This document shows, piece after piece, positions 1-32,529 of a stretch of DNA of 64,000 bases. Origin of the DNA: Schmidtea polychroa (taxonomy: Eukaryota); assembly GCA_044892525.1 (NCBI GenBank), contig CM097887.1, positions 115,112,397 through 115,176,396 on the forward strand. The letters are read 5' to 3'. A program made the position numbers and the translations under genes. How positions within the stretch are numbered: position 1 is the stretch's first letter; each line of letters begins with the position of its first letter. The notes under the pieces are model-generated. The model had not been told where the DNA came from and did not search any database. It saw nothing but the letters and a program-made list of their open reading frames with translations.

Positions 1-498
1 AGTACCCCAAGCCCAAATAAAGCACCGAGTAAATCAAATGAAACCGAGGAGGTTGAAGAGATTATCCTAGAAGATAGTGACGATGAACCAGGAGAAAGAT
101 CGCCACTATTAGTGAGATGGCCAACGGGAGCCGAGATCTGGACAACAAGTAGACCGTCGACGAGTTATCAACAACCGGAGAAACTAAACATCGAGGGAAT
201 CATCGACAATACGACAGAAACAGAAACAGATGAACAATTTAGGAAACAAAGAGAACCAACAAGAATAACTCCGGAAGGGCAAACCGATAAAATAATAGAC
301 GAATGGAATGAATGGCTGAGAAATAATGACAGTTCATTGCCCAGAACAGATAATGAAAGAAACCCGAATCACGAAAATACAAGAGAAGCCGGAACAACAA
401 TGGAAAAACGGACTAAAGGGAGACCCAAGAAACAAGGGGAAAAACCCGAATTTAAAACTAAGGAACAATTAAAGCAAGAACAAGGACAAGTCAGATAA
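1..498 (+). CDS. C-terminal part of an upstream ORF (acidic/basic low-complexity linker), open from base 1; probably the upstream part of the polyprotein
   Basis: Frame 1 has no stop from position 1 (STPSPNKAPSKSNETEEVEEIILEDSDDEPGERSPLL...) to TAA at 496-498; it overlaps the next frame, which is open from 473. Confidence 0.7.
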   Translation, partial: STPSPNKAPSKSNETEEVEEIILEDSDDEPGERSPLLVRWPTGAEIWTTSRPSTSYQQPEKLNIEGIIDNTTETETDEQFRKQREPTRITPEGQTDKIIDEWNEWLRNNDSSLPRTDNERNPNHENTREAGTTMEKRTKGRPKKQGEKPEFKTKEQLKQEQGQVR

Positions 499-529
499 AA
501 TAGTATGGGATCTAAAGGAAGCCCAACCC

Positions 530-945
530 ACGATTGAAAGAGGAGAAAAGTGGATACGGGAATTAATAAAAGATATGTTAATAATAACGAACCCGCAACT
601 CAGACGTCTATGGCAACGAAAAGTAGCAAGCATGGAAGCTAGACAGCTATGGCACATCGTGTCAGGGATAATCCCAAAGTTAATCAAGGAGAAAACAAAA
701 ACCACTAAAACGGATTGGGATGAAACGAGGAGAGTAATCGAACAACTCACAACGAATGCAAACGATGATGAACACCATCTAGTAGTAATAACCTATTTGA
801 TGTATAATTTGATGGGATTAGCTGCAAGAAAAATACCCAATAAACAATTCGCAAACCACGTAGAAATGACAGTAGCAATCATAGAAAATACTATCGAACC
901 ACATATTATCCGTGCCGGAGGATGGAAGAGACTCATCCAAGCGCC
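530..945 (+). other. Bcl-2-like domain within the polyprotein
   Basis: BH2-like HIIRAGGWKRL (GGW at 917-925); BH1-like hydrophobic helix HLVVITYLMYNL; BH4-like WIRELIKDML in the upstream frame extension; all-helical pattern. Recognised by eye only. Confidence 0.5.
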
Positions 946-3900
946 ACGGAAAAACGAACAGGAAAGATCAATGCAAGTCAGATTGAAAAAGTTGCTGAAT
1001 GAACTAGAATGGGAATTACCAATGAAAGATCCAGCTAGCAGAAAAGCGTCAATAAACTCGTTAATGATGACTATGATGATATGGATGTTATGTATCAGCG
1101 GAGCAACAGGCTTCACGATCTATGATTGCGATAATTCCGTAATGAGGGATAGATACTCACTAAGAGACATCGAGGAATGTAGACAAGCTTCACCAAATAA
1201 ATTAGATGTCGTGAACAAAAAAGTCTCATATCATGTGTATCAGGAATCGGATTTCATCAGGACGCTAGCCAAAGAGTGCGTAGTATCAAAGCGTGTGTTG
1301 GCATACTATTGCGGACAATATTCATATTCAACTCTTATACTACCCGGATTGGATAAAGAAATAGTGCCCATACAAAGTGAGGATTGCAAAGAACTGTTTA
1401 GAACCAGAGCGATGAGGATCCGAGACGGAGTAACAATACACGGGCAAAGTGGAATGATCAAAACAGAAAGCATTTACGTAGCCGGACGCGTAAAATCAAC
1501 TGATGGAACATGTAATGGAGGTACGTATACGATCAGAGGAGAGGCGATATCGGGAGTAGTAGTAATCGAGTCATATACAGTTGAGTTAAAAGAATACGAA
1601 GCACAATTTGACGCCAATAATTATCAAATGAAGACCAACCCAGCATGTAGAGCTACGGAAAACGTATGCAAGACGGGGGTTTCGACCATAATATATGAAG
1701 CTAACACCCAAAAATGCCGACTTCAATTGTTGAAAAGTGCTCTGTTCAACGAAGTAAAAGGGGAAATTTATGAGAACGAGGATGATGAGGACGGAAATGG
1801 AAAAGTGAGAATGCGAAATGGAAAACCAGTACTACCATCGCCCAAAGAAAAAAGGCTCACCACACAAAAAACACCAACAGCACTGATCACAGACGATCCG
1901 GACCTAGGCATGAGATTCATCAGAGGGAAGGAGACCACCAAATGCGATAGTATCGTCTACAAGACCAACTACGCAGGTATCTACATGTCACGGCAGATAA
2001 TAGATAGAGCAGTGGGAAAGATAGCCACAGAGGACGTCAAATTGTACCTATATGCTAATAACAAAATGGATTTTTTATTCCATCGTGGACAAACGACACT
2101 GCAAAAAGTATACTACGATCTTATACAAAACGATTGTTCATTAAATAAGGAGATACTGAAAACAAAACTAGCTATAGCGATAACGCACCCTGATAATACG
2201 ATGCCATCACTCCCATTACCGGATGGACATTTTGGTAGGATGGTGGGAGAAGTGATGTATACATATGCATGTACTAAGACGTTTGCACGAATGCCAGAAA
2301 AACCCACGATACCACCAGGGAAATGTGCAAACGAGTTGGAAATTCGTTATAAAGGGCAAAATCGATTCGTCCAACCAGTTACCAGAATTATGAACCCATT
2401 AGGTTTCTACCCAAATCTCTTTAACTGTTCCAATGCGTACGGACCATTATACGAGAGACCCGATGGGAAATGGATAATGTTACCGGTGAGGGCCACAGTG
2501 GAGGAACCCAAGAAGTTTGGATTAATAGAACTCGCTACGGAGCAAGATTTCAAGCCCATAGATGTATCAAACGGAGGCATGTATTCCGCAGCGGATCTAG
2601 AAACAGCACGGCTAAACATACTTTTCCCAGCCAGACGAGAATCAATATTATCAAACATGGTCACAATAACGGGGGGAACGAACTATCAATCAGGTCCAAA
2701 TTATGAACTACTACTATCACCAGAACATTTCCAACACGCAACGTCAAATATGATGAAGGCAATGTGGGGAAGATTCTTAGTATTCGGACAAATGATGGCA
2801 GGAATATTGGGAATCATACTCATAATTCAAATTGTCAGAGTAATATTGACACAAATGTTAGCCTGTTTCGATATATACAAAAGAGAAAAGAAAGTAAATT
2901 GGAAAATGATAGTAGGGTTTCTACCATTTTTAGCAAAAACCATGGTATTACATCGTCACTCAAAAGATATTCATCGAATAAAGCGATTGATCAAAATATT
3001 AACCAAGATTAAAGGAACCGATGAGGAAATAGGTAGACGATTCCGAAAAACCATGTACGACGAAGCAACGAGAAGACAACTGAAAAAGAACAAGCCAAAA
3101 TTCTTAGACCGATTCAGGAGTCAATCATCTAACAGCGATAGTGACGATGACGACGAAGGGAACCACAAATATCCGTATCCCAGCGGACATCCAAAGGAAA
3201 AGCAAATTGAAACCGCACCGTATTGGGAGAAGGATAAGACAAACACCTGGATAGCCAACGGAAGTTATATACCACCGGACATCGTTGGACAACAAGCAGC
3301 CCTGACCATGACACAAAATATGTATCCACAATTACCCAATCAATCCGGAATGAATTATATGCCGACGAGGAGAACCAGAAGTGTAGATCAAGCGGACGAT
3401 GTACGGACAATAGCAGCAATGAGTTTACCTGGAGGTCCGGCAGTAACAGTCATGATCCAAATCAACGGAAAAGAAACAAATGCTATGATCGACACCGGAG
3501 CTAACGTATCAGCAATAGCAATTAATCAAATTCCCAGCAGATATTGGAAAGATATCGAGTCAACAACAATCCACATCATAGCATGCAGTAAAGAAACAGT
3601 AGACGTGGTCGGAAGATGGTGGACCACCTTAAAATACCAAGATAACGAAATTGAAACGTATTTAGCAGTAATACCAAAACTAAGTGTACCATGCATAATC
3701 GGAACAGATCTAATGCCAGAACTACTAAAAGAAGTAGTAATCGATTTAACAACAATGTGCCTAAAGGATAAAACCGGCAGAATATGCACAATGAATGCGA
3801 TAATCAGATGTCCAGAAAAAATAATCGTACCAGCAAAATCACAGATGATCTGTCAAATAAAAGTAGACACGGGAATGGAAGGGGAAGTTATTTTCGAACC

Positions 3901-6871
3901 AAGTAAATCGTTTGAAAAACGACGAGAATTACCGCTAGCAAGAGAAATAATAACAATAAATCAAGAAGGAATGATACCGATCAACATCACGAATTTCGAA
4001 GAGGAAGACAAAATCATCTATGAGAATGAAAAATTGGGAAAATTGACCCCAATGATGGATATAGAACTACCAAAAGTGACCAACGACACAACCAAAAACG
4101 ACGAATTATGGACAATCGACAGTACATTGTTAACAGCTGCCGAAAAGAGAAAATTGCACCGATTGTTAGTGGAATACAAAGATATATTCGCCATCTCAGA
4201 TTTGGATTTGGGTACATGTGATGTCACCCTACATGCAATTCCACTGATAGATGAAACTCCAATCGCATTAAGACCATACAAACTAGCAGAAATGCAAAAA
4301 GAAATAGCTGAAGCAGAAGTGCAAAAGATGCTAGATGCAAAAGTAATCGAACCAAGTTGCTCACCTTGGCAGTTTCCAGTGGTCATGGTGAAAAAGAAAG
4401 ATGGCACGCAAAGATTCTGTATCGATTATCGAAAATTAAATGCAGTAACAAAGAGGGATACCTATCCATTGCCAGACATTAATGAAATGTTACTCATGTT
4501 GCAGGGGGCAGCATATTTTACTTCTTTAGATTTAAAAAGTGGATACTGGCAGATTAAAGTCAAAGATGAGGACAAAGAGAAGACCGCTTTCACTTTGGGG
4601 CGAGATCTATATCAGTTCAGGAAAATGCCATTCGGACTAACTAACGCACCAGCATCATTTCAAAGGTGTATGAACTTTGTCACTCATGGAATAAAACAGT
4701 GTATGGTATATATTGATGATTTACTAATATATTCAGCGACCTTTGAACAACATCTGGAGGATATCCGAAATGTATTTATTCGATTACGACAATGGAAACT
4801 CAAACTCAAACCTTCCAAATGCGATTGGGCAAAGGAAAAGGTTACGTTTTTAGGACACATAGTGTCAGCCAAAGGAAAAGAGCCAGACCCAAGAAACATC
4901 GAAAAAATAAAAACATGTCCAGCACCAAAAACTGTCACCCAAGTTCAGGAATTTCTCGGACTATGTGGATACTACCGTAAATTTATCAAAAATTATGCCG
5001 GAATTGCAAAACCAATCCAAGAACTGGTAAAGAAAGACATCTCATTCAGTTGGGGAAAAGAACAACAGGAGGCATTCGAGACGTTGAGAGATAAATTGAT
5101 TGAAGCACCAATCCTCGTACATCCGGATTTCAAGAAGCCATTTCTATTGGCAACAGACGCAAGCGGATATGCGGCCGGAGCAATTTTAGTCCAACTGGAT
5201 GACGAGGGAAAAGAGAGAGTAATTGGATATTACAGTCGAACATTCAAAAAGCATGAGAAGAACTATTCGGTAACAGAAAGAGAAGCATTAGCTATAATAC
5301 AAGCCATCAAACACTTCCGATATTTACTATGGGGACATGAGATATGCATAACCACAGATCATCAACCATTGGTGTGGTTAGGGCAACATAAAGAAGCGTC
5401 AAGTAGACTAATGAGATGGGCCATGCAATTACAAGAATACTCCCCATTTATAAAATTCAAAGCAGGAAGAGCAAATGCCAACGCCGATTGTATGTCAAGA
5501 TTTATTTTTCCAGATTTGGTGGATTCGGAAATGCAACGCATATGCTTAATAGTAGCGGAAGATTTGGACTTTTGCCAACTGCGAAAGGACCAACAAGAAG
5601 ACGCAGAATTAAAGCAAATTATCGATTATGTAAAAACAGGAAAAACCGAAGTGTATGCGAAAGACCAGAAATTAAAAGAACATATGGATAAACATCGACA
5701 TCGATACATTATAGATAAAGATTGGTTGCTAATAATGGATGGCGAAAAACGATTAATGTGCATACCGGAAAACAGACGAAAAGAGTTACTAACGCAATAT
5801 CACGATGGAAGATTGGGTGGACACATGTCATCAAAAAAGACTTTAGCAAGAATGAAACAGAAATATTTTTGGCCTGCGCTAACCGAAGACGTAACCGAAT
5901 GGGTGAAAAATTGTCTAACTTGTGCAACCAGGAAGAATACTGGATCGAAATGGAAAGCGCCGTTAACGCCAATGCCAGTACCGATAGAACCAATGACAAT
6001 GATATCAATGGACGTAGTCGGTCCATTACCCGAATCGGATAAAGGAAACGTTTATATTTTGGTAATTACGGATTACCTCACGAAATTCCCAGAGGCATTT
6101 GCTATGCCGGATCAAAAAGCTAAAACAATCGCAAATATCTTGGTAGAAGAAATATGTTGCCGATATGGAACGCCGAAGCAAATATTAACAGATCAAGGCA
6201 CAAATTTCATGAGTGAGATCATGAGCGAGGTGACCAACTACTTCAAAATCGCAAAGTTGAGAACATCACCGTATCACCCTCAAACAAACGGGATGACGGA
6301 AAGATTTAACGGAACACTTATCCAAATGTTGTCGAATTACGTCGACCGTCACCAACGAGATTGGGACGAATATATTAACCTATGTCTTATGGCTTATAGA
6401 ATGTCAATTCACGCATCAACAAAAATGAGCCCATTCAAATTAATGTACGGAAGGGAATGTAACATGCCAATGGACCTAGAATATCAACCACCAATATCGC
6501 AATATATGGAGATACACGATTATGTCACAAAATTCAAAGAAAGAATGCAGGAAATTTGGGAAACCGCGGGACTAAACATCAAATTCTACCAGGAAAGTTA
6601 TAAAGATTTACATGATCGAAAGAAAAACGTGAAGCAACATACCTTGCAGATAGGCGATTGGGTAATGATAGAAACACCAGAACTGATTCCGGGAACCACA
6701 AAAAAGTTACAACGAAACGGAAAAGGGCCATATGAGATCTTATTTGTAGGCGAAACTAACGTAAGAGTGAAATTGGTGAATAATCCGTTCACCAGGCCAA
6801 TATACGTAAATGTAGACGATGTAAACCAATCCCAAAAACAGCCATCAGTCAACCAGAAGGCCGTACGTTAA
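575..6871 (+). CDS. pol: Polyprotein: Bcl-2-like domain, internal signal, class III fusion glycoprotein, TM, tail, aspartic protease, RT, RNase H, integrase
   Basis: PR MIDTGANVSAI (~3484); RT PWQFPVVMVKKKDGTQRFCIDYRKLN, LDLKSGYWQI, MPFGLTNAP, YIDDLL (~4709); RH LATDASG, ITTDHQPL; IN H..H..CLTC, MDVVGP, TDQG, ERFN, GPYEI. The frame is open from 473. Confidence 0.95.
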   Translation: MLIITNPQLRRLWQRKVASMEARQLWHIVSGIIPKLIKEKTKTTKTDWDETRRVIEQLTTNANDDEHHLVVITYLMYNLMGLAARKIPNKQFANHVEMTVAIIENTIEPHIIRAGGWKRLIQAPRKNEQERSMQVRLKKLLNELEWELPMKDPASRKASINSLMMTMMIWMLCISGATGFTIYDCDNSVMRDRYSLRDIEECRQASPNKLDVVNKKVSYHVYQESDFIRTLAKECVVSKRVLAYYCGQYSYSTLILPGLDKEIVPIQSEDCKELFRTRAMRIRDGVTIHGQSGMIKTESIYVAGRVKSTDGTCNGGTYTIRGEAISGVVVIESYTVELKEYEAQFDANNYQMKTNPACRATENVCKTGVSTIIYEANTQKCRLQLLKSALFNEVKGEIYENEDDEDGNGKVRMRNGKPVLPSPKEKRLTTQKTPTALITDDPDLGMRFIRGKETTKCDSIVYKTNYAGIYMSRQIIDRAVGKIATEDVKLYLYANNKMDFLFHRGQTTLQKVYYDLIQNDCSLNKEILKTKLAIAITHPDNTMPSLPLPDGHFGRMVGEVMYTYACTKTFARMPEKPTIPPGKCANELEIRYKGQNRFVQPVTRIMNPLGFYPNLFNCSNAYGPLYERPDGKWIMLPVRATVEEPKKFGLIELATEQDFKPIDVSNGGMYSAADLETARLNILFPARRESILSNMVTITGGTNYQSGPNYELLLSPEHFQHATSNMMKAMWGRFLVFGQMMAGILGIILIIQIVRVILTQMLACFDIYKREKKVNWKMIVGFLPFLAKTMVLHRHSKDIHRIKRLIKILTKIKGTDEEIGRRFRKTMYDEATRRQLKKNKPKFLDRFRSQSSNSDSDDDDEGNHKYPYPSGHPKEKQIETAPYWEKDKTNTWIANGSYIPPDIVGQQAALTMTQNMYPQLPNQSGMNYMPTRRTRSVDQADDVRTIAAMSLPGGPAVTVMIQINGKETNAMIDTGANVSAIAINQIPSRYWKDIESTTIHIIACSKETVDVVGRWWTTLKYQDNEIETYLAVIPKLSVPCIIGTDLMPELLKEVVIDLTTMCLKDKTGRICTMNAIIRCPEKIIVPAKSQMICQIKVDTGMEGEVIFEPSKSFEKRRELPLAREIITINQEGMIPINITNFEEEDKIIYENEKLGKLTPMMDIELPKVTNDTTKNDELWTIDSTLLTAAEKRKLHRLLVEYKDIFAISDLDLGTCDVTLHAIPLIDETPIALRPYKLAEMQKEIAEAEVQKMLDAKVIEPSCSPWQFPVVMVKKKDGTQRFCIDYRKLNAVTKRDTYPLPDINEMLLMLQGAAYFTSLDLKSGYWQIKVKDEDKEKTAFTLGRDLYQFRKMPFGLTNAPASFQRCMNFVTHGIKQCMVYIDDLLIYSATFEQHLEDIRNVFIRLRQWKLKLKPSKCDWAKEKVTFLGHIVSAKGKEPDPRNIEKIKTCPAPKTVTQVQEFLGLCGYYRKFIKNYAGIAKPIQELVKKDISFSWGKEQQEAFETLRDKLIEAPILVHPDFKKPFLLATDASGYAAGAILVQLDDEGKERVIGYYSRTFKKHEKNYSVTEREALAIIQAIKHFRYLLWGHEICITTDHQPLVWLGQHKEASSRLMRWAMQLQEYSPFIKFKAGRANANADCMSRFIFPDLVDSEMQRICLIVAEDLDFCQLRKDQQEDAELKQIIDYVKTGKTEVYAKDQKLKEHMDKHRHRYIIDKDWLLIMDGEKRLMCIPENRRKELLTQYHDGRLGGHMSSKKTLARMKQKYFWPALTEDVTEWVKNCLTCATRKNTGSKWKAPLTPMPVPIEPMTMISMDVVGPLPESDKGNVYILVITDYLTKFPEAFAMPDQKAKTIANILVEEICCRYGTPKQILTDQGTNFMSEIMSEVTNYFKIAKLRTSPYHPQTNGMTERFNGTLIQMLSNYVDRHQRDWDEYINLCLMAYRMSIHASTKMSPFKLMYGRECNMPMDLEYQPPISQYMEIHDYVTKFKERMQEIWETAGLNIKFYQESYKDLHDRKKNVKQHTLQIGDWVMIETPELIPGTTKKLQRNGKGPYEILFVGETNVRVKLVNNPFTRPIYVNVDDVNQSQKQPSVNQKAVR
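1052..2950 (+). other. Env-like class III fusion glycoprotein (chuvirus/Monjiviricetes G, gB-like) within the polyprotein
   Basis: Signal-like INSLMMTMMIWMLCISGATG|FTIYDC. Cys pattern ECVV..YYCG, DCKELF, DGTCNGG, central helix NDCSLNKEILKTKLAIA, GEVMYTYAC, CANELEI..FVQPVTRI, CSN..P.Y..GKW, GMYSAADLE. TM FLVFGQMMAGILGIILIIQIVRVIL at 2774-2848. Confidence 0.85.
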
Positions 6872-6894
6872 CCACACGTTCGCAAACTTACCGA

Positions 6895-9438
6895 ATGAAC
6901 ATGATGCAACAGCTCGCAGAACCAACGACTGGACGATTGGGTATCCAACCATCAGAAGCTGAAAAGATTGTAACGGAGGTAAAGATTAAAATACCCGGAT
7001 GGGCAAAAGATAGACTAGACTTCGAAATATTAGGAGGACTATTGACAATGATCGAAAACTATGCAAACAGAGAAAGAACGCATCCGTTGTTACGAGTAGT
7101 CAAAAGCCAATGGCCGATATTATTTACCGTAACAGATCCTTATGGAGACACACCATTACATAAACTTATGAAAGTAGGCAACAACGAACAAATACTAGAG
7201 ACAATAGAAGCATTTCACGACTGCAATAGATCAACAGAACAAGAAAACAACCAGGGTTACACACCATTAATGATAGCAGCAAACAGAGGCAAAACAAAAG
7301 ACATTATAATCGCATTACTCGACACCGGATCAAAGATAACCACACAAGATCGTAATCAGAAGAACGCGCTGCATCATGCAATTGAAGGGAGAAGTTCCGA
7401 AGCATTCACGACGTTGATGGAACTACTAGCATATGAAGATAATCGAGAAGTCGGAAACATGTATGACGGTTTATTAACCGCAATCAAAGAGAAATTGACA
7501 ACAATTACCGGAATATTGATTACATGGAGAAATCCAATCAAAAATGATTACATGATCGACGTAAACGAAGCATTCACGAGAGGAGAGAACACGCTTATGA
7601 GAGAAGCCATGAAAGGACATCATTTATTCGAAATCCCAAATCAATTAATGGAACGAGGAATAAAATTCACAAACCATAAAGACGAACAGCTATTAAAAAA
7701 GCGAACTGACACATTCGAAAAATCCATATTCCAATTCGTTAACCAAGCACGAAATAAACATTGGGAAACAGTAAGTGTGCTATATATGATGGACACAATG
7801 AACAACATTCGCGAGAATTACTTAGATATTATTCAAACACTTACAGCGGAAGAACGAATCAATAATTCAACCAGTAAGAAAACAAAAATAAAGAAAGGAA
7901 CATCAAAAGAACCAAAGTCGCAAACGAATCAAATTGCAGCAAATAATGTCAGCAAAACGAAACCAAGAAATTTAGATCAAGAAACAATAATACGCAAAGC
8001 GAAAGAAGTATTCTTTGAGGAAATGCTAGAGTTATCAGACGAAATGATATTGGCTAAAATAATAAAGACCGTACACACATACGCAAGGGATCAAACAACA
8101 GAGTTGGATATCGGAAAAATCAAAACCTTCATGCCACGAGCATTTACCATGTTAACCAAGGATCAAAGAACGTCGTTACAACAGGCAATACTAGCAGCAA
8201 AGGAAAACCGAGCAATAACGATAATAAGAATCCTCAGAGATTTGGGTAAGGAAACCAACACGAAAAACGAACAACGCGAAACCGCCATGATGTATGCAGC
8301 TATAACAAAAATACACCCAAAAACACTCCATATACTACATCAATCAGGATCAAGACTGGATGAAAAATCAACCGAAGGGAACTCCACAATGGACTGGGCA
8401 ACCATACAGCCGAACCTAGAAATGATCAGGTTCATATGCAAAAATGCGACAAAGGAAGAAGTTGAAAATATTTGCAAAAACACATCTCATTTTCAGTGGA
8501 ATACGGTACGGGAAAATCTAGAAGCCATGAAATTATTATTAACATGGAGAGTGCCGCAAAGTAATAAATACGCGATTAACGTAAACGAATTTTATGAGAA
8601 CGGTGAAAACACAATGGTCAAAAATACATTAACTAAAGGGGGGACACCTAAGATCATACTAATTGTATTGAATAGAGAAGATCTGAGATTCACGAAAAAC
8701 CCAAACGAACATCAACGAATTGGAAAACACCGCCGTATACAACTGAGAGAACTAGTGAAGGAATGGAATCGGAAAAGACACGCAGCAACCGGGAGAAAAG
8801 AGTTCGAATTCGAGGCTAAACTAGCAAGAAACAGAGTACTAACAGCATACCGAAGATTATTAAACGATATAAATGTCGAGGACGACATTTTAAACGACAG
8901 CGGGGGAGATAAATTCGATGATAATGACGGAAAGGGTCGAAAAGAGGATAAAGAGAAAAGAAAACCGGAAGAGGATAACCCGGAAAACAAAGACCCAGGT
9001 ACGGGAAAGGACGGAAACAACCCGGGAAACAAGACGAAAGAGGAGGAAAAACCGAATAATGGAAAACAGAGGGTATGCCTACCTTTCACCAACAAAGAAA
9101 TAGAAACAAATATGATACTAATGATAATTGTCCTAACCATGATAGAATTAGTAACAGCCCATGGAGAGACGAGAACGTTAAAAGAGACCAAAGAAGCAGA
9201 GAACCACGACAACAAAAAGGAGGAGCTGAAGCCAGAAAAGAAAAAACAAGTACAAGAGCAACAATGGGATCTGAAGGAGGAGTGGGATCTAAAGGAAAGA
9301 TGTATACTGGGAAGATGCATGTCTAAAGCATATCGGAGATTAGTGTTAATGAACGAGGACACAGAACCGATAACGGAAGTGGGAATACAAGAAGCATACC
9401 AACACCGGAACGGGAAGAGAATAACGAAAGTTAAATGA
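6895..9438 (+). CDS. Ankyrin-repeat protein with two duplicated ANK modules; probably the continuation of the polyprotein (frame open from 6784)
   Basis: GDTPLHKL, GYTPLMIAA, KNALHHAI, RETAMMYAA, GNSTMDWA. Internal duplication: LITWRNP..IDVNE..GENT..FTNHKDE versus LLTWRVP..INVNE..GENT..FTKNPNE. Confidence 0.9.
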   Translation: MNMMQQLAEPTTGRLGIQPSEAEKIVTEVKIKIPGWAKDRLDFEILGGLLTMIENYANRERTHPLLRVVKSQWPILFTVTDPYGDTPLHKLMKVGNNEQILETIEAFHDCNRSTEQENNQGYTPLMIAANRGKTKDIIIALLDTGSKITTQDRNQKNALHHAIEGRSSEAFTTLMELLAYEDNREVGNMYDGLLTAIKEKLTTITGILITWRNPIKNDYMIDVNEAFTRGENTLMREAMKGHHLFEIPNQLMERGIKFTNHKDEQLLKKRTDTFEKSIFQFVNQARNKHWETVSVLYMMDTMNNIRENYLDIIQTLTAEERINNSTSKKTKIKKGTSKEPKSQTNQIAANNVSKTKPRNLDQETIIRKAKEVFFEEMLELSDEMILAKIIKTVHTYARDQTTELDIGKIKTFMPRAFTMLTKDQRTSLQQAILAAKENRAITIIRILRDLGKETNTKNEQRETAMMYAAITKIHPKTLHILHQSGSRLDEKSTEGNSTMDWATIQPNLEMIRFICKNATKEEVENICKNTSHFQWNTVRENLEAMKLLLTWRVPQSNKYAINVNEFYENGENTMVKNTLTKGGTPKIILIVLNREDLRFTKNPNEHQRIGKHRRIQLRELVKEWNRKRHAATGRKEFEFEAKLARNRVLTAYRRLLNDINVEDDILNDSGGDKFDDNDGKGRKEDKEKRKPEEDNPENKDPGTGKDGNNPGNKTKEEEKPNNGKQRVCLPFTNKEIETNMILMIIVLTMIELVTAHGETRTLKETKEAENHDNKKEELKPEKKKQVQEQQWDLKEEWDLKERCILGRCMSKAYRRLVLMNEDTEPITEVGIQEAYQHRNGKRITKVK

Positions 9439-10113
9439 AAAGAGGTGCACCTAGATAAAGGAGGCGAAGTAGTGATAACACAACTCCAACCAAGGAAAGA
9501 ACACAAAGTATGTATTTCAAGGCTAGGACCAGGCGAAGACTGTTTACAATATGTAACACAGCAACAACAGCCAAAGGAATACACGGTCTGTATCGTGAGA
9601 AAAAGACCAGAAAAGGAATGCCGACGATATCCTGGGAAAAGGGGGAAGAAAAGAAAGATCAATGACGGAGAAGACGAGGAAGGAAAACGCCAGAGGGTCG
9701 ATGAGAAAAACCAAGATAATTACGTATCAGAAGAAGAAATGGAAAAAATACAAAAAATGGCAAAAGAAGGGATCAATGAGGAAATAACAAGAATACGAGG
9801 GTTGAAGAAAGGTAAAAGTCAAACAGAGAAAGAGGGAAATGCAGAAACAGCGAGTACAGTGATAAACAATGGAAACTCAGAGATCATCAGCGTAAAACAG
9901 ATGATATGGATCAGCGGAATAATAATGACCGGAGCGTTCATAACTATTACGGGGGGGACGATAAAAATAATCCGAGATAAACAACAGCGTAATAAACTCG
10001 AAATGATCAGAGCCAGAAACTTTCAACATCAAGTAAAAAGGCCCAGTAAAATGAGTCAGGAACAGTGGATGGAGGCCTGGAAGACGCAGTGCCCTCCAAA
10101 TCCACAAATATAG
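9439..10113 (+). CDS. In-frame continuation of the ANK ORF after a single TGA; Cys-containing segment and C-terminal TM
   Basis: Same frame as 6895, separated only by TGA 9436-9438; no ATG at the annotated start (GTG); TM IWISGIIMTGAFITITGGTI at 9904-9963; homolog at 61216-61860 on the minus strand. Confidence 0.75.
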   Translation, partial: KEVHLDKGGEVVITQLQPRKEHKVCISRLGPGEDCLQYVTQQQQPKEYTVCIVRKRPEKECRRYPGKRGKKRKINDGEDEEGKRQRVDEKNQDNYVSEEEMEKIQKMAKEGINEEITRIRGLKKGKSQTEKEGNAETASTVINNGNSEIISVKQMIWISGIIMTGAFITITGGTIKIIRDKQQRNKLEMIRARNFQHQVKRPSKMSQEQWMEAWKTQCPPNPQI

Positions 10114-10254
10114 AAAGGGTTATAACTGTATATAGTTGTAAAAAGTAAGTATATCTTATGTATATAACAGTATCATATTTTTTATATAAGCGCGGTATTA
10201 ATAGTATATAACGGACGGGAGAAATAAACAATATAAAATTAAATAAGATAAAGA

Positions 10255-10638
10255 TTGAGGATGTATGTAAAATTAAGAATGGAGCAAAGAAATAACGAAA
10301 TAAATCGCAATACAACAACCGAAGATATGTGGAAGCAACAATGTGCTGGACTAGCACAACTAGTGTCAAATTTGCAGGAACAAGGACTTACGATGCAAAG
10401 AAACCTAGTTGATAGCCTAAACAAAGGATTTAGCTATTTAAAAATAATCGAGGAGCAGAGAGCAGTAATAGAACAGATGCAAAGAGAGATAGAGCGGATA
10501 ACAAGATACAGCCAGAGACAGGAAGAAGAATTAGTGAGGATGGCGGAAGAAGCAGAATACGAGGAAATGGAAGATTGGTCAGAATGGTTAATGAGTAGAG
10601 AAGAGGGCGGACAGGAGGCCGACTCTTCTGAACCATAA
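10255..10638 (+). CDS. Small coiled-coil protein with an acidic tail, unknown function
   Basis: 127-aa ORF with heptad pattern; conserved in the second copy (MWKQQCA.LAQL, DWSEWL, EEGGQEADSS). Confidence 0.8.
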   Translation: MRMYVKLRMEQRNNEINRNTTTEDMWKQQCAGLAQLVSNLQEQGLTMQRNLVDSLNKGFSYLKIIEEQRAVIEQMQREIERITRYSQRQEEELVRMAEEAEYEEMEDWSEWLMSREEGGQEADSSEP

Positions 10639-10704
10639 TCAAGGCCTAAAATTAAATGTAAATAACTGTAAATAAATATCGAACCTGTATCGATAAGAAA
10701 TTAT

Positions 10705-12111
10705 ATGTGTATAATTGTAGACATGGATAAACAAAAGAGAGAAGAGTTCAACGAAATCATCGAGTTAGTCAGAGATTCCGCAGCAATCAGAATACACAAA
10801 CATGTCATGTGTGGAATATGTGAAAAATTATTAAAAGAACCCCATCAAACCCAATGCGGATGCAGAGTGTGCAAAGAATGTATAAAAGAAACAATAAAAA
10901 ACCGACCACAGTGGTGCCCGATATGTAAAGAGACACTGATATCAAGTTTAGAAGATACTAATGAAGACAAAGCCGCGGTAAAGGACATGTTGAACACTAA
11001 TCTGGGATGTAAAAATACCCCATGTGAATGGAAAGGATCAATATGGAAAGTGAAACAACATCTGGTGGAATGTATGTACAAAGTCAGCCAGTGTGAACGA
11101 TGCCAGAAATTAATTCAAGCTAACGAAGAAAAGGAACATCAAAGTCAGTGTGAAGAAAGGTTGGAAAGATGCGAATATTGCGGAGAAGTAGACACATGGA
11201 AAAATCTCACCATCAAACATCACAATGTCCAAGAGGAAAAGGTATGTGCAGAATTCTGTGGTGAATGCCCGAACGGATGCAACAAAGGGGGAGTAATAAA
11301 ATTAGCCCAGCATCTAAAAGAATGCGAAAGGAAAAGAATGATATGCGTACTAGGCAAATGGGGGTGTCAGAAATTACTACACCGAGAAGACTTGCCACAC
11401 CACTTAACCGAAAATGTAATAACTCACGCAGAGATGTGGTCAACTGCACTACAAGACAGTGAAGAGAAAGTGCGACAAATGGAGATAGAAATAACCTCAC
11501 TGAAAGCATTAGTAAAAGAACTGCTAGAAGAACGAGAGGCTTTTGAACAAGCTCGAGCAAACATAAAAATGCAAATTAATCGAATGGAAATCAGTAACGA
11601 TCAGGCCAAAGTACTGCATCAGAAAATAAATGAAATCAATCTAAATGAGGTAATACCAACTGCACCGTATATATGGAAAATAACGGGAGTAAAAGAAAGA
11701 GTACGAAAAGCAAAAACCGGAGAAGATACAAGACTAACAAGCCCCGCATTCCATTCCTGGAAAAACGGATACAAAATGAAAATGAAGGTATATCCCAACG
11801 GGAACGGGACCGGATTAGATACGCATTTTTCGATCTTCTTTATGCTCTGCAAAGGGGAGTATGATGAAATATTAGAATGGCCATTCCAGGCAAAAATCGA
11901 TATTACACTAATGAACAACCAAAGTATACACGAGCAAAGCTTCAAAACAACGGGGAATCAAATAGCTTACCAGAGGCCCCTCAACGAAGAAGGAGCAGCA
12001 ACAGGAGCACCGACGTTCATTTTACAACAAAGGGTAGAAGATATGGCGAGAAATGATACCGTATATATCAAGATGACGGTTCGGAGGGAAGGAAAGAGTA
12101 GAACCGAGTAA
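10705..12111 (+). CDS. TRAF: Intronless full-length TRAF-family protein (RING, TRAF zinc fingers, coiled coil, MATH), TRAF2/3/5-like
   Basis: RING CGIC..QCGCRVCKEC..CPIC; zinc fingers CKNTPCEWKG, CERC, CEYC, CPNGC; MATH YIWKI..SPAF..GYKM..YPNGNGTG..THFSIFF..EWPF. Confidence 0.95.
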   Translation: MCIIVDMDKQKREEFNEIIELVRDSAAIRIHKHVMCGICEKLLKEPHQTQCGCRVCKECIKETIKNRPQWCPICKETLISSLEDTNEDKAAVKDMLNTNLGCKNTPCEWKGSIWKVKQHLVECMYKVSQCERCQKLIQANEEKEHQSQCEERLERCEYCGEVDTWKNLTIKHHNVQEEKVCAEFCGECPNGCNKGGVIKLAQHLKECERKRMICVLGKWGCQKLLHREDLPHHLTENVITHAEMWSTALQDSEEKVRQMEIEITSLKALVKELLEEREAFEQARANIKMQINRMEISNDQAKVLHQKINEINLNEVIPTAPYIWKITGVKERVRKAKTGEDTRLTSPAFHSWKNGYKMKMKVYPNGNGTGLDTHFSIFFMLCKGEYDEILEWPFQAKIDITLMNNQSIHEQSFKTTGNQIAYQRPLNEEGAATGAPTFILQQRVEDMARNDTVYIKMTVRREGKSRTE

Positions 12112-12304
12112 CCAGGGTGAATAATGTTGTATATAATAAATTTGTATATATCGGTGTATATAACCTATAAAATAGTATATAATAATAGTATGGGATCCAC
12201 AAACACAACAACCCAAAACTGAAGCGAAAAATCCAGGAAAAACATCAACCGAATAATAAAATCCAATAATGCGATGATATTTAATCAGAATCTATAATTT
12301 AGAA

Positions 12305-13360
12305 ATGACACAAGAGAAAACAACTGAAACTACGATGACCCCAAATGATACCAACAAGACACAAATCCCCAGAGAATATAGTGAGAAATGGAACAAGGTG
12401 ATGTTCCAATTAGCTAACCTCACCCGAAATCACATTGAGGAAGCCAGAGAGTACGAAACCCACAAATACCAATGGCTGGTAGACAATTTAAGAACGGAAG
12501 CGGAAACATGTAAAAGGGCCGCAAAATGGGCTTCGTTAGAAAATACTCGACAAGAATCGCACAGTCACTATCTAAAACAACTACTACAAGAATCGCGGAA
12601 AAGACTGACTGATGAGAATAAAAAACGAGAGACCGAAAAACAGAAAGAGGAGAAAAAGATGCGACATCTATTGGCAGAAGCACGAAAATGGAAACGACAG
12701 AACAGAGAAATGAGAAAGGAAATGAAGGAATTGCCTACGAGATTAGAGTACGAGAGCGAGCAGGGCAAATGGGAAGAGAACTTAGTTATAAAAGAGGAAC
12801 TAAAACGGCTAAGAAAGATCGCGGCTCGGAGCCAAACCTGGCAGACCAAGGCCATGGAGTTTGAAAGACATTTAGCCATGAAACTCTCCATAAGGGAGCA
12901 CGAGAATGCAGCGATGGAAGAATTGATACTCCAGCAGTCGGGGCGAGTCGGGGAATTAATAAATCAAGTCACCGAGCTAAAACGAGATGTCAATGGATAT
13001 CAGGGAGCTCTGGAACAAAGAAACATGGTATTGGTAGGAAAAAATAAAAAGCTAGAAAACGAAAGAAAAATGTATAACGAAAATCTCAAAAATTTGAAGA
13101 TAGAAATCGAGAAATGGAAGGGCGACGAAAAGATAGAAGAGTTTGATAGGCAACTAAAGGTAAAAGATGAGGAGATGAGATACCTCACCTACCTACTCGA
13201 CGAGGAACTGAATATCACAAGAGCCTTACTAGATGAAGTTCAGGAACTGAGGGCTCAAATTCCCCAATATTACATACCATATGACCCTATTGCCGTTCAA
13301 CTACAGGCAGCGGTCGAGAGCGATGAAGGATACGGGGGTCAGGAGGAAACCTTCGTATAG
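12305..13360 (+). CDS. Long coiled-coil protein ending in ETFV, unknown function
   Basis: 351-aa E/K/R-rich heptad ORF; its N-terminus is conserved at 58650-58921 on the minus strand (AEAEACKRAARWASLE). Confidence 0.8.
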   Translation: MTQEKTTETTMTPNDTNKTQIPREYSEKWNKVMFQLANLTRNHIEEAREYETHKYQWLVDNLRTEAETCKRAAKWASLENTRQESHSHYLKQLLQESRKRLTDENKKRETEKQKEEKKMRHLLAEARKWKRQNREMRKEMKELPTRLEYESEQGKWEENLVIKEELKRLRKIAARSQTWQTKAMEFERHLAMKLSIREHENAAMEELILQQSGRVGELINQVTELKRDVNGYQGALEQRNMVLVGKNKKLENERKMYNENLKNLKIEIEKWKGDEKIEEFDRQLKVKDEEMRYLTYLLDEELNITRALLDEVQELRAQIPQYYIPYDPIAVQLQAAVESDEGYGGQEETFV

Positions 13361-13534
13361 GGGCTAATAAAAACTTCAAAAATTCAGAAATTGGGACCTA
13401 TATCCCAAACAAAAAAAAAATTAATAGTATGGTAAAAGTATTTAAGGGACTGTAACCCTGTGTAAATAAAAACGATATAAATGTATAAGTATGAGTCGCA
13501 CTGTAGCGCATGATTAATTGTAAATATTATAGAT

Positions 13535-14239
13535 ATGAAGATTGAAGAGATAGTTGAACCCATGAGTGAAGTAGAAGAAGGAGAGATTATAATGGAAGTC
13601 GCAGAAACACAAATACTAAAGAAAGAATTACGAGAAGAGAAACGAGAAAACGAGAGATTAGTAAACAAATATATAGAAGATCGGAAGATAATTAAAGTAC
13701 TAAAGAAAGAATGCAAAATGCTAGGAGAAGTAAAGAGGGAAGCAGCAGAGAGAAATGAATGGCTGCAGGAACAACAAACACGAGGAAGAAATTGGGAAAG
13801 GATTGCAGAGGAATTATGGCAAGAGAGGGCAAGCTTCAAAGCAGAAGAAGTAATCCAAGACTACTGGAAAACAGAGGCGAGAGAACGCCAAACAACCATA
13901 AATAGATTAAATCGACAATTGGAGGAAAACCAACGAGAAAGTGAAGAAATGAAGAAATGGATTCGCAAATACAAAGAAATTGAGAGACAACAACAACAAC
14001 GAAACCCTCCACAGGAGAACGAACAAGATTTCCTAAAAATCGAGTTAAAAAGAAATCTTGACAAGAAACGAGAAGAAATAAGCAAACTAAAAAGGGAGAT
14101 AAGACACCTAAAACGGGAAGCCCGTGAAAAAGATCGGCAATTAGAGATGATGCCGGAATTAAGACACCGGGTCATTAAAGCGGAGTCTACCCTGATGAGA
14201 AATGCCGAAAATAATCCCAAAGGAGAACCGTCTAACTAA
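13535..14239 (+). CDS. Coiled-coil protein, unknown function
   Basis: 234-aa E/K/R-rich ORF, co-oriented and with the same A-rich codon bias as its neighbours. Confidence 0.75.
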   Translation: MKIEEIVEPMSEVEEGEIIMEVAETQILKKELREEKRENERLVNKYIEDRKIIKVLKKECKMLGEVKREAAERNEWLQEQQTRGRNWERIAEELWQERASFKAEEVIQDYWKTEARERQTTINRLNRQLEENQRESEEMKKWIRKYKEIERQQQQRNPPQENEQDFLKIELKRNLDKKREEISKLKREIRHLKREAREKDRQLEMMPELRHRVIKAESTLMRNAENNPKGEPSN

Positions 14240-14278
14240 AAGCAATTAAAGCCAGTGTAAATAATATAATAATAATAG

Positions 14279-14890
14279 ATGTATATTAGTACAATGCGGT
14301 ATGAAATAGTGATAACAGTAATGGTATTGATAAATCACCTGATGGAGAAACAACCATTAAATGCTCAACTGACAAGCATACGAGATCACCGCAATCGAAA
14401 TCAACAAGCCAAACCAGAACCTTGCCAATGCCAATACCCTAGTACAATAAAAACCAACATCCTCCATATAATCCAGTCAACTCGGTCATATGTTAATAAC
14501 GTCAGAAGTCTGTGCAAAAATCACCCCAGATGCCGAATGATGGACCGAAAAATACTCGAACAAGTCCAACACTTCGATCAGTTGGAACAACAAATACAAC
14601 AAGAAGTGTTCGAAAATCCGGCCGAGACAACAGAAACATCCTCAAATAACAGCGACACCCACTACCTTCTCTACGTAGTGGTCACAGAAACTATCTTGTT
14701 ATGCCTCATAACCTTCCTAAAAATCCTCGAAGTTAAGAAAAAATGTCAGAGCTCGAAATCTAGAGCCACAGTACAAAACCCAGCCGAAATAACCAATGTT
14801 ATCCAAACCACAAGCTCACCCAGATTAAACCATAAAGAATCTCCTCAACCATCGTCCAATCGCCCAGTCTACCCTAACACCAGTTCCTAA
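14279..14890 (+). CDS. Putative type I membrane protein
   Basis: N-terminal hydrophobic stretch (IVITVMVLI), four Cys in the predicted ectodomain, TM YLLYVVVTETILLCLITFL followed by KKK, S/T/P-rich tail. Confidence 0.7.
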   Translation: MYISTMRYEIVITVMVLINHLMEKQPLNAQLTSIRDHRNRNQQAKPEPCQCQYPSTIKTNILHIIQSTRSYVNNVRSLCKNHPRCRMMDRKILEQVQHFDQLEQQIQQEVFENPAETTETSSNNSDTHYLLYVVVTETILLCLITFLKILEVKKKCQSSKSRATVQNPAEITNVIQTTSSPRLNHKESPQPSSNRPVYPNTSS

Positions 14891-15499
14891 TTGTAGCAGC
14901 AAACCCCAACCAGAACCATCAGAGTGACCGAACAATGCCAGAACTGAACTAAAAACATTATGTTGTGAAAAACTTTGTTGTGTATATAAACCATCACCAT
15001 AAGTGATGCCTGCTTGGTCTTGATTTGACCTATATCTTATTAATAAAATTCTATTGATGTTTATAATTTTGTTAATCACTATGTTATCTTTTTATGAATG
15101 TGTTTATCTTTTTATGAGAGAGTAAGAGTAGCTCAAGTATGTAATTGCGGGACGCAATTTTATCGGGTCCCCGAGTGATTTGTTGGGCTGAGTCGAAAGC
15201 ATAATCGTCAAATTTAGGACAGATAAGACGCGAACAAATAAAATAAGACCACAAATTGCTAAAATAAATAAATCAAGAGACAAAAGAAACAATAACGTAA
15301 AATATTAAGATTAAAACAAAAAATAAAAAATAGAAAAATTAAAATAAGGTAATAAGATAAGGAATAAAATGACGAAAAATGCAACAAATAATGAGGAATT
15401 TAAGAAACAAATAAAAAATATATTAAAATAAAGAAAAATAAGGAAAAACAACCAAAGAAATAAGAAAAACAAATTAATTTAAAAGTTAAAGCGGTACTC

Positions 15500-15590
15500 A
15501 ATTTTGATTGGTCCGCATAAACAAAAAATTCCTATATAAGCAAACAGCAAATTCAATATAGTTACTGTTTAACAAACACCATTACAGGTA
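15500..15590 (+). promoter_or_regulatory. Putative Pol II promoter (LTR or internal) with first exon and splice donor
   Basis: ATTGG (reverse CCAAT) at ~15507, TATATAAG at 15533-15540, TAGTT Inr-like site ~28 nt downstream, CAG|GTAAGC donor at 15588. Confidence 0.5.
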
Positions 15591-17680
15591 AGCTCATAAT
15601 TTAAAAACTTACTGTTTAACAAACACCATTACAGATCAACACTCAACCATTACAGACGATCACCGACGTACAACCTAAACGACTATCAGGGACAATTAGA
15701 TTTTTAACTCAGTACAATAACCGAATTCAGCTTTTCGACTCAGCTTTTCGAGATCACAGATCGATAAAGAATAAAGTAAGGATGTATTCTTATTATGAAT
15801 TCGAGTAAATGTTTCTCATGGAAGTTAATAGTAATAATGTTTATTATCACAATTTTAATAAAATTTTAATGTTCTCTCCATTTGGTCTCATATTTTAATA
15901 ATCAAATAGTTTCAGTAATGAAATTTAAAACCTTTTATGATAGATAACTATGCATGATGATTTCGATTTTTATGGAATTTATATGAAAATTATGGTTGAG
16001 TAACGTGGAGTTGAGGAGACCTGTACCATGGTGTGAGGAGCCTTCGGGATCTCAGCCGGTGGGTACAGACTTCTTCAATCACGCAGCTGACGTGGGCCGG
16101 AAAGTGGGGGCTTCCTCACGGGTCCGTCGCTGAGGGAATTAAAATGTTGCAAGAATTAGCTGACAATAACATAGAATACCATTCGGATTGGAAGATGAGG
16201 ACGATCTTAAAATCCATGACTGAGGTGGCTACAAACGTTTATTTTTCAAAACCCATCATTCTTAGCTGTTACATCTTGAATTCTTTACCTAATACCCGTA
16301 ATCAGTCTGAATCGCCTAAGTGTGCCAATCGACATTCCATCTTCTGAGTACCAAACCCATTTCTGTTGAAATGCACGTCAATTTCCGTCTGACCTGTAGA
16401 AACTGAGTACCAACCCATTCGTCGACGCTATACAATCACATGAGAAGTATAGATGAAATTTATTGAACACAATTTTTTATTAAGAAAATGTATTACGAAA
16501 CTGTTTTATTTTTAACCAAATTATTTCGAAGTGTTCTGAAAATTACACTCACAGTAGGATAAACTCCCTTCAGTAAAGGACACCTCCGATTGACCTTGTT
16601 AAATTGCAGATTTTTCGAATAAGTCGAAGGAAATGTCCACGAAATAAAGTTATCCAAGTAGAAAACACAATTAACTGCACATCGCGGGGAACAAATCCAA
16701 CATTAGCGTTTGATGAGAGAGCAACCTAGATGACATATTGATTCCACGAATTGATTCGACCCAGTGGTGTATTGCGATCATCTGCGAACGATAATTCCGA
16801 TAATGAGCAAACATACGAGATAAATCACACGCACTAACACACTAGTACTTACTCACATATGCGACATGCAGTATTTTCCCAGTCAGCTACAAGTATTGAG
16901 AACCGAAATTAAAACACGCACAGACAACAAGGCTGGCTCGGATAGATAGCAGGCCGCCTGTCTCATGCTTCCATTATCTGGCATGACGAACTATTTTTCA
17001 TGAGATTGATCTTATTACAGGTGTTTCCCGACATATAGCTAATTTCATCGTAGATTAAAATTTTAACTTGCAGAATGGTAATTCCGAACATTAATAATAG
17101 ATAACGGCCAGGTGATTGGTGCATATTCCAAATAATTTGGTATTAAACGGGGACCCAGCAGCTATTGAGTGGAGATTAATTTTGCCTGCGCATCCGCTTG
17201 CCGAGGTGGGAATTCTGAGTTATGTCCTGGGGGAATAATGCGTTGGTTAAGGGGGAAATCGGAAGGCGTTAACAATAAAATTTTGTTTTCTGCGTTTGGT
17301 CTATTTCCAAAGATATTATTTGAAGGAATTATTAGTTATCGGCTCAATTTCGTTGTCCATTTTGTGTACAAGGAGGTTGGGCATCCCCGCATCTAATTAA
17401 TTACGAATTTGTTTTTGTTGTTTCTCCATTACACCAAGGGAAAGAGGGTCACGGCTTACAACTCGACCGGTAGATGACATTCGAATTTAATAATAATAAC
17501 TCAGAGATTTTCTTCACCCATTAGCATAAATCCCTTCCTCTTAATATATTAGGACCACATCAAAATTAATGTATAGCTTGTAGGAAAATTCATAGATGAT
17601 TAGGCCACCAGGCTGGTTTAAATAGACATAGCGAATCTTGTATTTTATCCTTATTGTTTCTTTCATTCTAGCCATTGAGA

Positions 17681-18430
17681 ATGTTACCAAGCTCGAAGTC
17701 GTCTCTCAAACCCTGCTTCTCATGCTCAGATAAGAATTCTATAATCAGGGATTTGCAAGCCCAGATCGGTCGATACAAGAAAGCGATCGACCATCTGGAA
17801 GGTACATGGTTCAGCCCAGTACAAATGAAGGAGGTACAAAAGAAATTGTACCGAAGCGAGCACTGTCGCGACGCCTTAATAAGCGAGAGTAGGGCCCAAC
17901 GCAGTCTTATCAAAGAGCAGTCCGAGGCTCTACACAAGGTCTACGTACAAGCGGCAGCAACTAGAAAGATAGTGAGTATACCTATCAATGGAGCGGACGA
18001 CCTTTTCCCCGTCCATCATGAACTTCCTTCCAATTCGTCATCTTCGGCTAAGAAGCCCTGCCGGGAATGCGTGGAAGCCGATCTCTCTCCCAGGTCAACC
18101 ATAGTGTCTCCCATTGGAGCCCAGAAAGGGTTATCATCGACCGCGTCTTCCTCTGTCGTACTATCAAACACCCTGATTGTTCCAAAACCCAAGCGTCGAC
18201 AGTTGTCCAGAGCTGAGCGTAAAAAGCGTCAGCGCGAACGAGCAATCGCCAAACAAAGTGGACTATCTGCCGAGCTCTCCAGTACTTCGAACGATCCCCC
18301 TGTAACGATCGATTTAACCGTAGGGATCCCAGGGCGAATCATCTCCGCCGCTGGTGTAACTTGGGAGGAGAATGCCTCCGAATTCTTCGAGCTGGAGGAG
18401 CTGTTAGCCGACGCAGAATGGGAAAAGTAA
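17681..18430 (+). CDS. Basic/Ser-rich protein with coiled coil, NLS-like cluster and acidic C-terminus; probably a spliced accessory gene
   Basis: ATG at 17681 lies 9 nt after a polypyrimidine-AG acceptor (17641-17671); PKPKRRQLSRAERKKRQR; AATAAA at 18567. Confidence 0.6.
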   Translation: MLPSSKSSLKPCFSCSDKNSIIRDLQAQIGRYKKAIDHLEGTWFSPVQMKEVQKKLYRSEHCRDALISESRAQRSLIKEQSEALHKVYVQAAATRKIVSIPINGADDLFPVHHELPSNSSSSAKKPCRECVEADLSPRSTIVSPIGAQKGLSSTASSSVVLSNTLIVPKPKRRQLSRAERKKRQRERAIAKQSGLSAELSSTSNDPPVTIDLTVGIPGRIISAAGVTWEENASEFFELEELLADAEWEK

Positions 18431-29225: not shown

Positions 29226-29519
29226 TGTTAGACGCAATTAAATTCAAGTCTTCTTCAAGCATTTATTTTTATAACAACTTCAAAAATTGAGCCGTTTGCT
29301 AGAATATTTAAACACCTAGGCGTGATAATTAATAATATTAATGTAATTACTGGTCATACATTTAATTGATTTAATTTAATATAATTTAATATAATATGGT
29401 ATAATTTAATATAGAATTTAAATATACAAATTTAACAGAAATAATTATTTCTACTAACTGATCTCACTTCTACCATTTAACCATAATAATTTTATATAGA
29501 GATTTACTAACTCCTTACA
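29226..29519 (-). repeat. 3' LTR of the young Gypsy
   Basis: Direct repeat of 33940-34233. Confidence 0.95.
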
Positions 29520-32500: not shown

Positions 32501-32529
32501 GGTCTACCTTGCATTTTGTCATAACTCAA
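29515..32529 (-). pseudogene. pol: Disrupted pol (PR 32215-32529, RT-RH 30432-32039, IN 29515-30498)
   Basis: LLDTGARVN; YLDDILI; LDTDAS; MDICGP, HVDCG, GPYTI; split over several frames. Confidence 0.9.

Follow-up and report, generated by a model that had tools for sequence, protein, structure and literature searches.

A recently inserted, broken Burro-type Ty3/gypsy element in Schmidtea polychroa and the giant single-frame polyprotein predicted for its family

Introduction

This study concerns a stretch of 64,000 nucleotides of Schmidtea polychroa (GenBank assembly GCA_044892525.1, contig CM097887.1, positions 115,112,397 to 115,176,396 of the forward strand), called the window here, whose positions 1-18998 are the 3' part of a 29.6-kb long terminal repeat (LTR) element of the Ty3/gypsy type. 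A preliminary description made from the letters of the window alone had proposed that three small lesions in this region hide one open reading frame (ORF) of more than 3,370 amino acids, running from upstream of the first base to position 10113. The analysis reported here points to a defective copy of a giant element whose family very probably encodes one still longer polyprotein. Plain coordinates refer to the window, and the parts of the element given within it lie on the plus strand; L003 and L004 are stretches upstream of the window.

Elements of comparable size have been described before. In the available passages of PMC6431247, the Burro/GYPSM1 elements of planarians exceed 30 kb and have an ORF1 of 4,873 amino acids together with accessory ORFs that may be either free or fused. 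The domains listed there for Burro ORF1 are Gag, MATH/TRAF, Ubi/SUMO-like, BCL2-like, Env, protease (PR), dUTPase-like, reverse transcriptase (RT), RNase H (RH), integrase (IN), BIR and ankyrin. Removal of PIWI silencing by smedwi-2 RNAi leads to transcription of Burro elements, according to the part of PMC8532177 that was available, and these elements are only mentioned in the available parts of PMC13238120 and PMC11410931.

Results

Ends and age of the element

Measured from its LTR ends the element is 29,583 bp long. The 3' LTR (15181-18998, 3,818 nt) and the 5' LTR (L003:9416 to L004:3234) both have TG...CA ends and are 99.8% identical, differing over 3,819 nt by 6 mismatches and 1 gap. 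A 4-bp target duplication lies on both sides of the whole element. The near-identical LTRs, the TG/CA ends and the target duplication together indicate a young element of that length. Pfam matches showed the PR-RT-RNase H-IN domain order of Ty3/gypsy elements. A purine-rich tract directly before the 3' LTR (15155-15180) was not seen by eye. Just after the 5' LTR, at L004:3235-3260 and a few bases off the LTR end, there is a likeness by eye to a tRNA-Pro primer site. Both LTRs also carry a 252-codon ORF (17672-18430 and L004:1908-2666) with no Pfam family.

Reading frames and domains of the polyprotein

The coding region of this copy is spread over several pieces. Frame 1 is open from 1 to 498, a second frame is open from 473 to 6871 (2,132 codons), and frame 1 is open again from 6784 to 9438, with an ATG at 6895, and is followed in the same frame by a last piece from 9439 to 10113. 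The natural stop of the polyprotein frame lies at 10111..10113, and the window part of the frame thus comprises 10113/3 = 3,371 codons. The piece at 1..498 continues the frame of L004:9665-10000 from upstream and is an acidic low-complexity linker, with no Pfam match above the cut-off, that follows a ubiquitin-like domain. The polyprotein frame begins at gag, some 4 kb before the window, where a 1,280-codon frame (L004:5940-9782) encodes Gag and CCHC knuckles (PF03732, E 3e-10; PF00098, E 4e-10). The ubiquitin/SUMO-like stretch, in the frame that runs into the first base of the window, is a weak match (PF00240, E 8e-4; PF11976, E 0.026).

The preliminary description had called the frame open from 473 a pol frame; a weak Bcl-2-like stretch and a fusion glycoprotein also lie in this frame ahead of the protease. 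The Bcl-2-like stretch (722..925) matched PF00452 at E 0.007, below the cut-off, and at E 0.03-0.055 when smaller pieces were searched; against PDB sequences it gave one chance match (E 1.3). A moderately hydrophobic segment at 1064..1120 (hydropathy value KD19 1.54), a putative internal signal sequence, precedes a viral fusion glycoprotein (Env, 1112..2881; PF24664 Monjiviricetes_fusion, E 4.5e-71, best stretch 1862-2881) which lies in frame with gag and pol. The transmembrane helix of Env is at 2792-2848 (KD19 2.53; 2.46-2.67 in 27 copies). The frame then encodes a retroviral aspartyl protease (3449..3724; PF00077, E 9e-11), reverse transcriptase and RNase H (4388..5440; PF00078, PF17917, PF17919) and the zinc-binding and core domains of integrase (5762..6770; PF17921, PF00665), followed by a weak SH3-like C-terminal integrase domain (PF24626, E 0.008, below the cut-off). 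No Pfam match to a dUTPase-like domain was found up to E 1 for 3773-4072, between protease and reverse transcriptase; the published call was made with HHpred. No BIR match was found in the element ORFs scanned, among which those under 90-150 codons were only partly included.

Two ankyrin modules follow integrase. Module 1 (7009..7656; PF12796, E 1e-19 for the ORF) aligns with residues 1501-1721 of P0011, a database protein of 2,387 amino acids, and module 2 (8047..8775; PF12796, E 1.4e-6 at 8191-8448) is an internal repeat of module 1 and aligns to the same stretch of P0011. Behind them lies a hydrophobic segment, h1 (9100..9156; KD19 1.86, 1.78-1.93 in 27 copies), which is predicted to be signal-like or membrane-spanning, then a charged, cysteine-bearing module of about 245 residues (9157..9900), and then a second hydrophobic segment, h2 (9901..9957; KD19 1.58, 1.72-2.07 in 23 copies), with a tail of about 50 residues. 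The preliminary description had placed a single membrane segment here; its fusion behind integrase was borne out, but there are two hydrophobic segments rather than one. Pfam found no family in the last ORF (9439-10113) and gave no match below E 0.4 for the module at 9157-9900, and the module had 0 homologues among 1.84 billion representatives. A fibronectin-type-III-like fold was considered for the module around the third break described below, and it found neither Pfam support nor a homologue in these searches; when the corresponding 120 residues of another copy (L005) were modelled from a single sequence, the predicted local distance difference test score (pLDDT) was 35.

Breaks in this copy and in its sister copies

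Three breaks interrupt the frame within the window and a fourth lies just upstream of it. A genome search with window positions 6600-7100 was used to collect other copies: the best 40 of 312 candidates were scored and 36 of the 39 other matches were analysed. For each copy it was asked whether the frame upstream of a break runs into the downstream frame without a stop or shift. Break 1 (473..498, where two frames overlap) was open in 21 of the 23 copies that cover it, the others having one stop and one shift (13 of the 36 did not cover it). Break 2 (6784..6871, again two overlapping frames) was open in 34 of 36 copies, and the other two had an in-frame stop of their own in the interval. Break 3 (9436..9438, a premature TGA) was open in 27 of 28 covering copies, with one shift and 8 copies not covering. 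Over the three junctions this makes 82 open cases of 87, a rate matched by six control intervals within open frames (163/174). Because 82 of 87 were open across the three breaks, the junctions are open beyond chance.

What breaks the frame is private to this copy in each case. At break 1, 22 of the 23 covering copies are 14 nt longer than this one, and the remaining copy is 13 nt longer. A search seeded on break 1, in which the best 40 of 297 candidates were scored and a copy sharing the loss would rank top, gave the same result, since 39 of 39 other matches were 14 nt longer (hand count from coordinates). The preliminary description had joined the frames here by a one-base shift; the overlap and the net offset agree with it, but these length differences identify the real cause as a 14-nt deletion. 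At break 2 this copy is 1 nt shorter than all 36 copies, as expected from the single-base loss proposed earlier. The single TGA that had been described as splitting the ankyrin ORF from the last ORF in the same frame is also peculiar to this copy, as the codon homologous to 9436-9438 was a sense codon in 29/29 covering copies. In contrast to that TGA, the stop at 10111-10113 was kept in 29/29 covering copies. Stops or shifts kept in other copies, which the preliminary description had named as a sign of separate genes or programmed recoding, were not found: none of the copies examined shares any break.

The upstream 7 kb was added for 20 of the 36 copies. The fourth break was open in 17 of these 20 (two stops and one shift in the others), and this copy is 4 nt shorter there than 19 of the 20. 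One frame extended over the whole span equivalent to the window in 6 of the 36 copies. Five of these six fully open copies are 95-99% identical to one another and 86% identical to the sixth, and they therefore represent two lineages, not six. Over the longer span 4 of the 20 copies had a single frame of 4,730-4,732 codons, or 4,615-4,617 residues from the first ATG. An ancestral single ORF running from upstream of the first base to 10113 is therefore upheld, but its size had been underestimated and comes to about 4,730 codons from stop to stop. The preliminary description had also not tied the element to a published type.

A protein search with the last ORF was also made, in which the best 150 of 408 candidates were scored, with 149 other matches. 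Frames of at least 4,700 codons contained 43 of these 149 matches, frames of at least 3,370 codons contained 49, and frames of at least 1,110 codons, which reach back into integrase, contained 96. Only 3 of the 149 lay in frames of 230 codons or fewer. Some matches were in frames of 4,808-4,817 codons compared with about 4,732, which suggests a subfamily whose frame is about 80 codons longer.

Breaks per copy were also counted across the genome from DNA alignments, and this count was discarded. It overcounts, because compensating gap pairs occur near 9510 and at 9810-9930 even in open copies. Outside the bins with gap pairs, no 30-nt bin was common to more than 2 copies.

Selection and a distant relative

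Ratios of nonsynonymous to synonymous substitution (dN/dS) were obtained from three pairs of copies. They were 0.00-0.09 in seven segments from the Bcl-2-like stretch (0.01-0.07) to integrase and 0.01-0.33 in all ten segments downstream of integrase, with dS reaching 1.4, which makes the ratios rough in some segments. These values indicate that purifying selection acts along the whole length of the polyprotein, out to its last codons.

The protein search that gave P0011 returned generic ankyrin proteins for 13 of its 14 matches, with 9-14% query coverage. P0011 itself is 46% identical over 1,027 pol residues. P0011 resembles the window element in having RT-RNase H-integrase and then a homologous ankyrin module in one chain. 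It differs in having one ankyrin module that matches both window modules, in a record without the N-terminal part, and in having extra aspartyl-protease-like domains after integrase, on either side of the ankyrin module, which were not seen in the window element. The selection on this region and the same downstream position of ankyrin in P0011 indicate that the fusion of integrase and ankyrin is old and maintained.

Accessory ORFs and neighbouring DNA

Five accessory ORFs lie between the polyprotein stop and the 3' LTR. The first (10252..10638, 128 codons) has no family above the cut-off, the second (10672..12111) encodes a TRAF-like protein with a RING finger and MATH/TRAF (PF21355, E 1e-26; PF22486; weak PF00097), and three more ORFs of 360, 241 and 203 codons (12278..14890) again have no family above the cut-off. 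In the interval between the 5' LTR and gag, upstream of the window (L004:3427-4017), a further accessory ORF encodes a C3HC4 RING (PF13920, E 1e-10) in its 196 codons and has no BIR match. A decayed, 65% identical remnant of a related element's accessory block, corresponding to 10261-12194 and including the TRAF-like ORF, was found at 59043-60930 on the minus strand.

The remaining DNA of the window contains other mobile elements. A small second Ty3/gypsy element at 29226-34233 (minus strand) has 294-nt terminal repeats that are 99% identical and encodes gag, PR, RT, RNase H and IN over several frames, and a further integrase fragment is at 28113-29168. There is also a DDE_1 transposase ORF with Brinker and Tc5 DNA-binding domains (25931-27298), a pair of 634-nt inverted repeats that are 95% alike and 21.7 kb apart (21864-22497 and 44248-44881), and a 1.4-kb element with terminal inverted repeats (53210-54591). 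Two long minus-strand ORFs are possibly host exons: a 728-codon ORF with 72-nt tandem repeats and no Pfam match (35692-37878), and a 1,190-codon DUF4550 ORF about 1.9 kb upstream of the 5' LTR (L003:3929-7498).

Discussion

The data presented in this study suggest, at a probability of about 0.93, that the copy studied is a giant Ty3/gypsy element of the Burro type, recently inserted and now defective, and that its family encodes one polyprotein of about 4,600-4,700 residues. The order in the polyprotein is Gag, ubiquitin/SUMO-like, Bcl-2-like, Env, protease, reverse transcriptase, RNase H, integrase, two ankyrin modules and the C-terminal module. Because the sister copies are open and the four breaks occur in no other copy examined, the breaks are best explained by ordinary decay and not by special decoding. 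With its gag frame ending before the window starts, this copy cannot make the full chain.

Several caveats weigh against this interpretation. The copies are not independent of one another, as the near identity of five of the six fully open copies makes clear, and only the best 40/312, 150/408 and 40/297 candidates were scored. Most copies are broken somewhere, with 30/36 lacking one frame over the span, though this is partly due to incomplete coverage. The Bcl-2-like and ubiquitin-like assignments are below the Pfam cut-offs, Pfam scans gave no dUTPase-like or BIR match, and the counterpart of the segment at 1064-1120 is weakly hydrophobic elsewhere (KD19 0.94-1.27 in 23 copies). Some of the dN/dS ratios are rough, as noted above, and the number of indels expected since insertion (see below) comes from a single LTR indel. 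Additionally, the single polyprotein is deduced from sequence.

Among the other explanations, the one that fares best accepts the polyprotein and attributes at least one of the breaks to an error of assembly or polishing, which would leave the copy in the animal less damaged. We consider this improbable. Errors, too, would give breaks confined to one copy, as these are, and high-copy repeats are difficult to polish. Of 17 public runs, all in the form of Logan contigs, four were compared at 98% likeness, and their contigs include the longer form at break 1 (one run) and at break 2 (one run). No listed piece of these contigs bridges a break in the window's own form. However, contigs drop rare variants and are therefore silent on the choice between mutation and error. 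The number of breaks fits the divergence of the LTRs. From it one expects, for the time since insertion, some 11 substitutions, 0.6 new stops and 1.9 indels over the 14.2-kb frame, compared with 1 stop and 3 indels seen (95% range for the expected indels 0.05-10). Single-base runs near the three window breaks are 3-4 nt at most, losses of 14 nt and 4 nt are not typical of long-read errors, and other copies have scattered breaks of their own. The matching target duplication and the 99.8% identical LTRs speak against a chimera of two loci. Compared with 12 of the 36 copies, this copy has 19 private sites, 13 non-synonymous and 6 synonymous, and the resulting ratio of nonsynonymous to synonymous polymorphism (pN/pS) of 0.60 is well above the between-copy ratios. 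The number of breaks, the pN/pS and the short single-base runs favour real decay at or after the last transposition, and real mutation is more likely than assembly error.

It could also be argued that the ankyrin and last ORFs are accessory genes in their own right, split off here and expressed from the ATG at 6895. That ATG is in frame, and accessory ORFs of Burro may occur either free or as subdomains of the polyprotein according to the available text of PMC6431247. However, the split is found in this copy alone, which is itself also broken in gag, no other copy has a spacer or a common stop between the pieces, and the true end is kept in 29/29, which leaves this proposal with very little credibility. 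Programmed frameshifts or stop readthrough at the breaks, by which the relative amounts of Gag, Env-Pol, ankyrin and membrane products would be fixed, are refuted at the family level, for although gag/pol recoding is common in LTR elements and breaks 2 and 3 are near domain borders, the same length was found in 0/23 copies at break 1 and 0/36 at break 2, the stop at break 3 in 0/29, and 43/149 matches lie in frames of at least 4,700 codons.

This copy is also a mosaic. It is like copy L005 from about 5000 to 6933, like L010 from 6954 to about 8480, and then L005-like again (122 informative sites), a sign of template switching between family genomes that were packaged together. Break 2 was considered as a recombination point and rejected, since the switch from L005-like to L010-like sequence at 6933-6954 is about 120 nt past the break.

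If the single polyprotein is made, its hydropathy suggests how it could be sorted. In LTR retroelements the aspartyl protease of the element cuts the cytosolic parts apart. The putative internal signal sequence (1064-1120) and the Env anchor (2792-2848) would thread the chain through the membrane of the endoplasmic reticulum (ER), and host signal peptidase would free Env. Env, and possibly the 245-residue module, would then lie inside the ER, while Gag, Pol and the ankyrin modules would stay cytosolic. No frameshift or readthrough would be needed, and Gag, Env, Pol and the ankyrin cargo would be produced one-to-one. The four breaks would be random mutations that date from the last transposition or later. 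As hypothesised in the available text of PMC6431247, apoptosis and ubiquitin signalling of the host are probable targets of the ankyrin, Bcl-2-like and TRAF-like products.

A more speculative extension, which we regard as doubtful, is that the polyprotein crosses the ER membrane four times, like an RNA-virus polyprotein, and releases a second, C-terminal membrane-anchored protein. This protein could be made up of the signal-like h1, the 245-residue module, the anchor h2 and the short tail, it could belong to the particle or the cell surface, and until cleavage by the protease it would keep Pol and the ankyrin modules attached to membranes. The segments are hydrophobic in all copies in which they could be measured (h1 in 27/27, h2 in 23/23), the module is under purifying selection (dN/dS 0.04-0.33), and an alternating topology is consistent. 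However, the module is very charged, with a basic run of a kind more usual in cytosolic or nuclear proteins, and the topology is read from hydropathy alone, next to a model of pLDDT 35. No description of a second membrane-anchored product was found in the literature searched, which left out the primary Burro paper and its supplements.

This element shares with Env-bearing Ty3/gypsy elements, for example gypsy of Drosophila, the LTRs, the PR-RT-RH-IN order and a captured viral fusion protein. However, in those elements Env has an ORF of its own, gag and pol are usually linked through a frameshift, and no ankyrin, Bcl-2-like or TRAF cargo is known.

The closer likeness is to Burro, and it is set by the published description of the architecture. 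As far as the available text of PMC6431247 goes, the two share a length of about 30 kb, many copies and one huge ORF (4,873 amino acids there and about 4,730 codons here), as well as Gag with CCHC, an in-frame Env akin to mononegavirus fusion glycoproteins, PR-RT-RH-IN, ankyrin and MATH/TRAF. The ubiquitin-like and Bcl-2-like stretches come in the right order, with weak Pfam matches. The Burro-type single ORF reaches up to 4,817 codons among the scored matches and is broken in this copy. In the same text, MATH/TRAF is listed in ORF1 of Burro1, whereas here it is in the separate RING-bearing ORF downstream (10672-12111), and BIR is listed there, whereas here no BIR match was found and a RING ORF lies upstream. 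That text does not mention hydrophobic segments after ankyrin. The Burro-like element of Dugesia tigrina described in the available text of PMC6431247 also has a single ORF with the same core and MATH/TRAF in an accessory ORF, but its ORF is 5,140 amino acids long and its MATH/TRAF ORF is upstream, not downstream as it is here.

A single giant polyprotein with in-frame Env and ankyrin has already been published for Burro, as the available text of PMC6431247 makes plain, and the extended data of the primary Burro paper may already show the downstream MATH/TRAF layout and the C-terminal segments. No further description of this architecture was found in the literature searched, with supplements outside that search. 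Private stops and frameshifts are usual in decayed copies of high-copy retroelements and have little significance in themselves. The additions made here are modest: many copies still have an uninterrupted frame, with purifying selection indicated to the last codons, MATH/TRAF occurs in a third arrangement, as a downstream accessory ORF, and an uncharacterised C-terminal module appears to be bounded by membrane segments. These observations are relevant to whether infectious particles arise from Burro elements and whether such elements interfere with apoptosis and ubiquitin signalling in the host.

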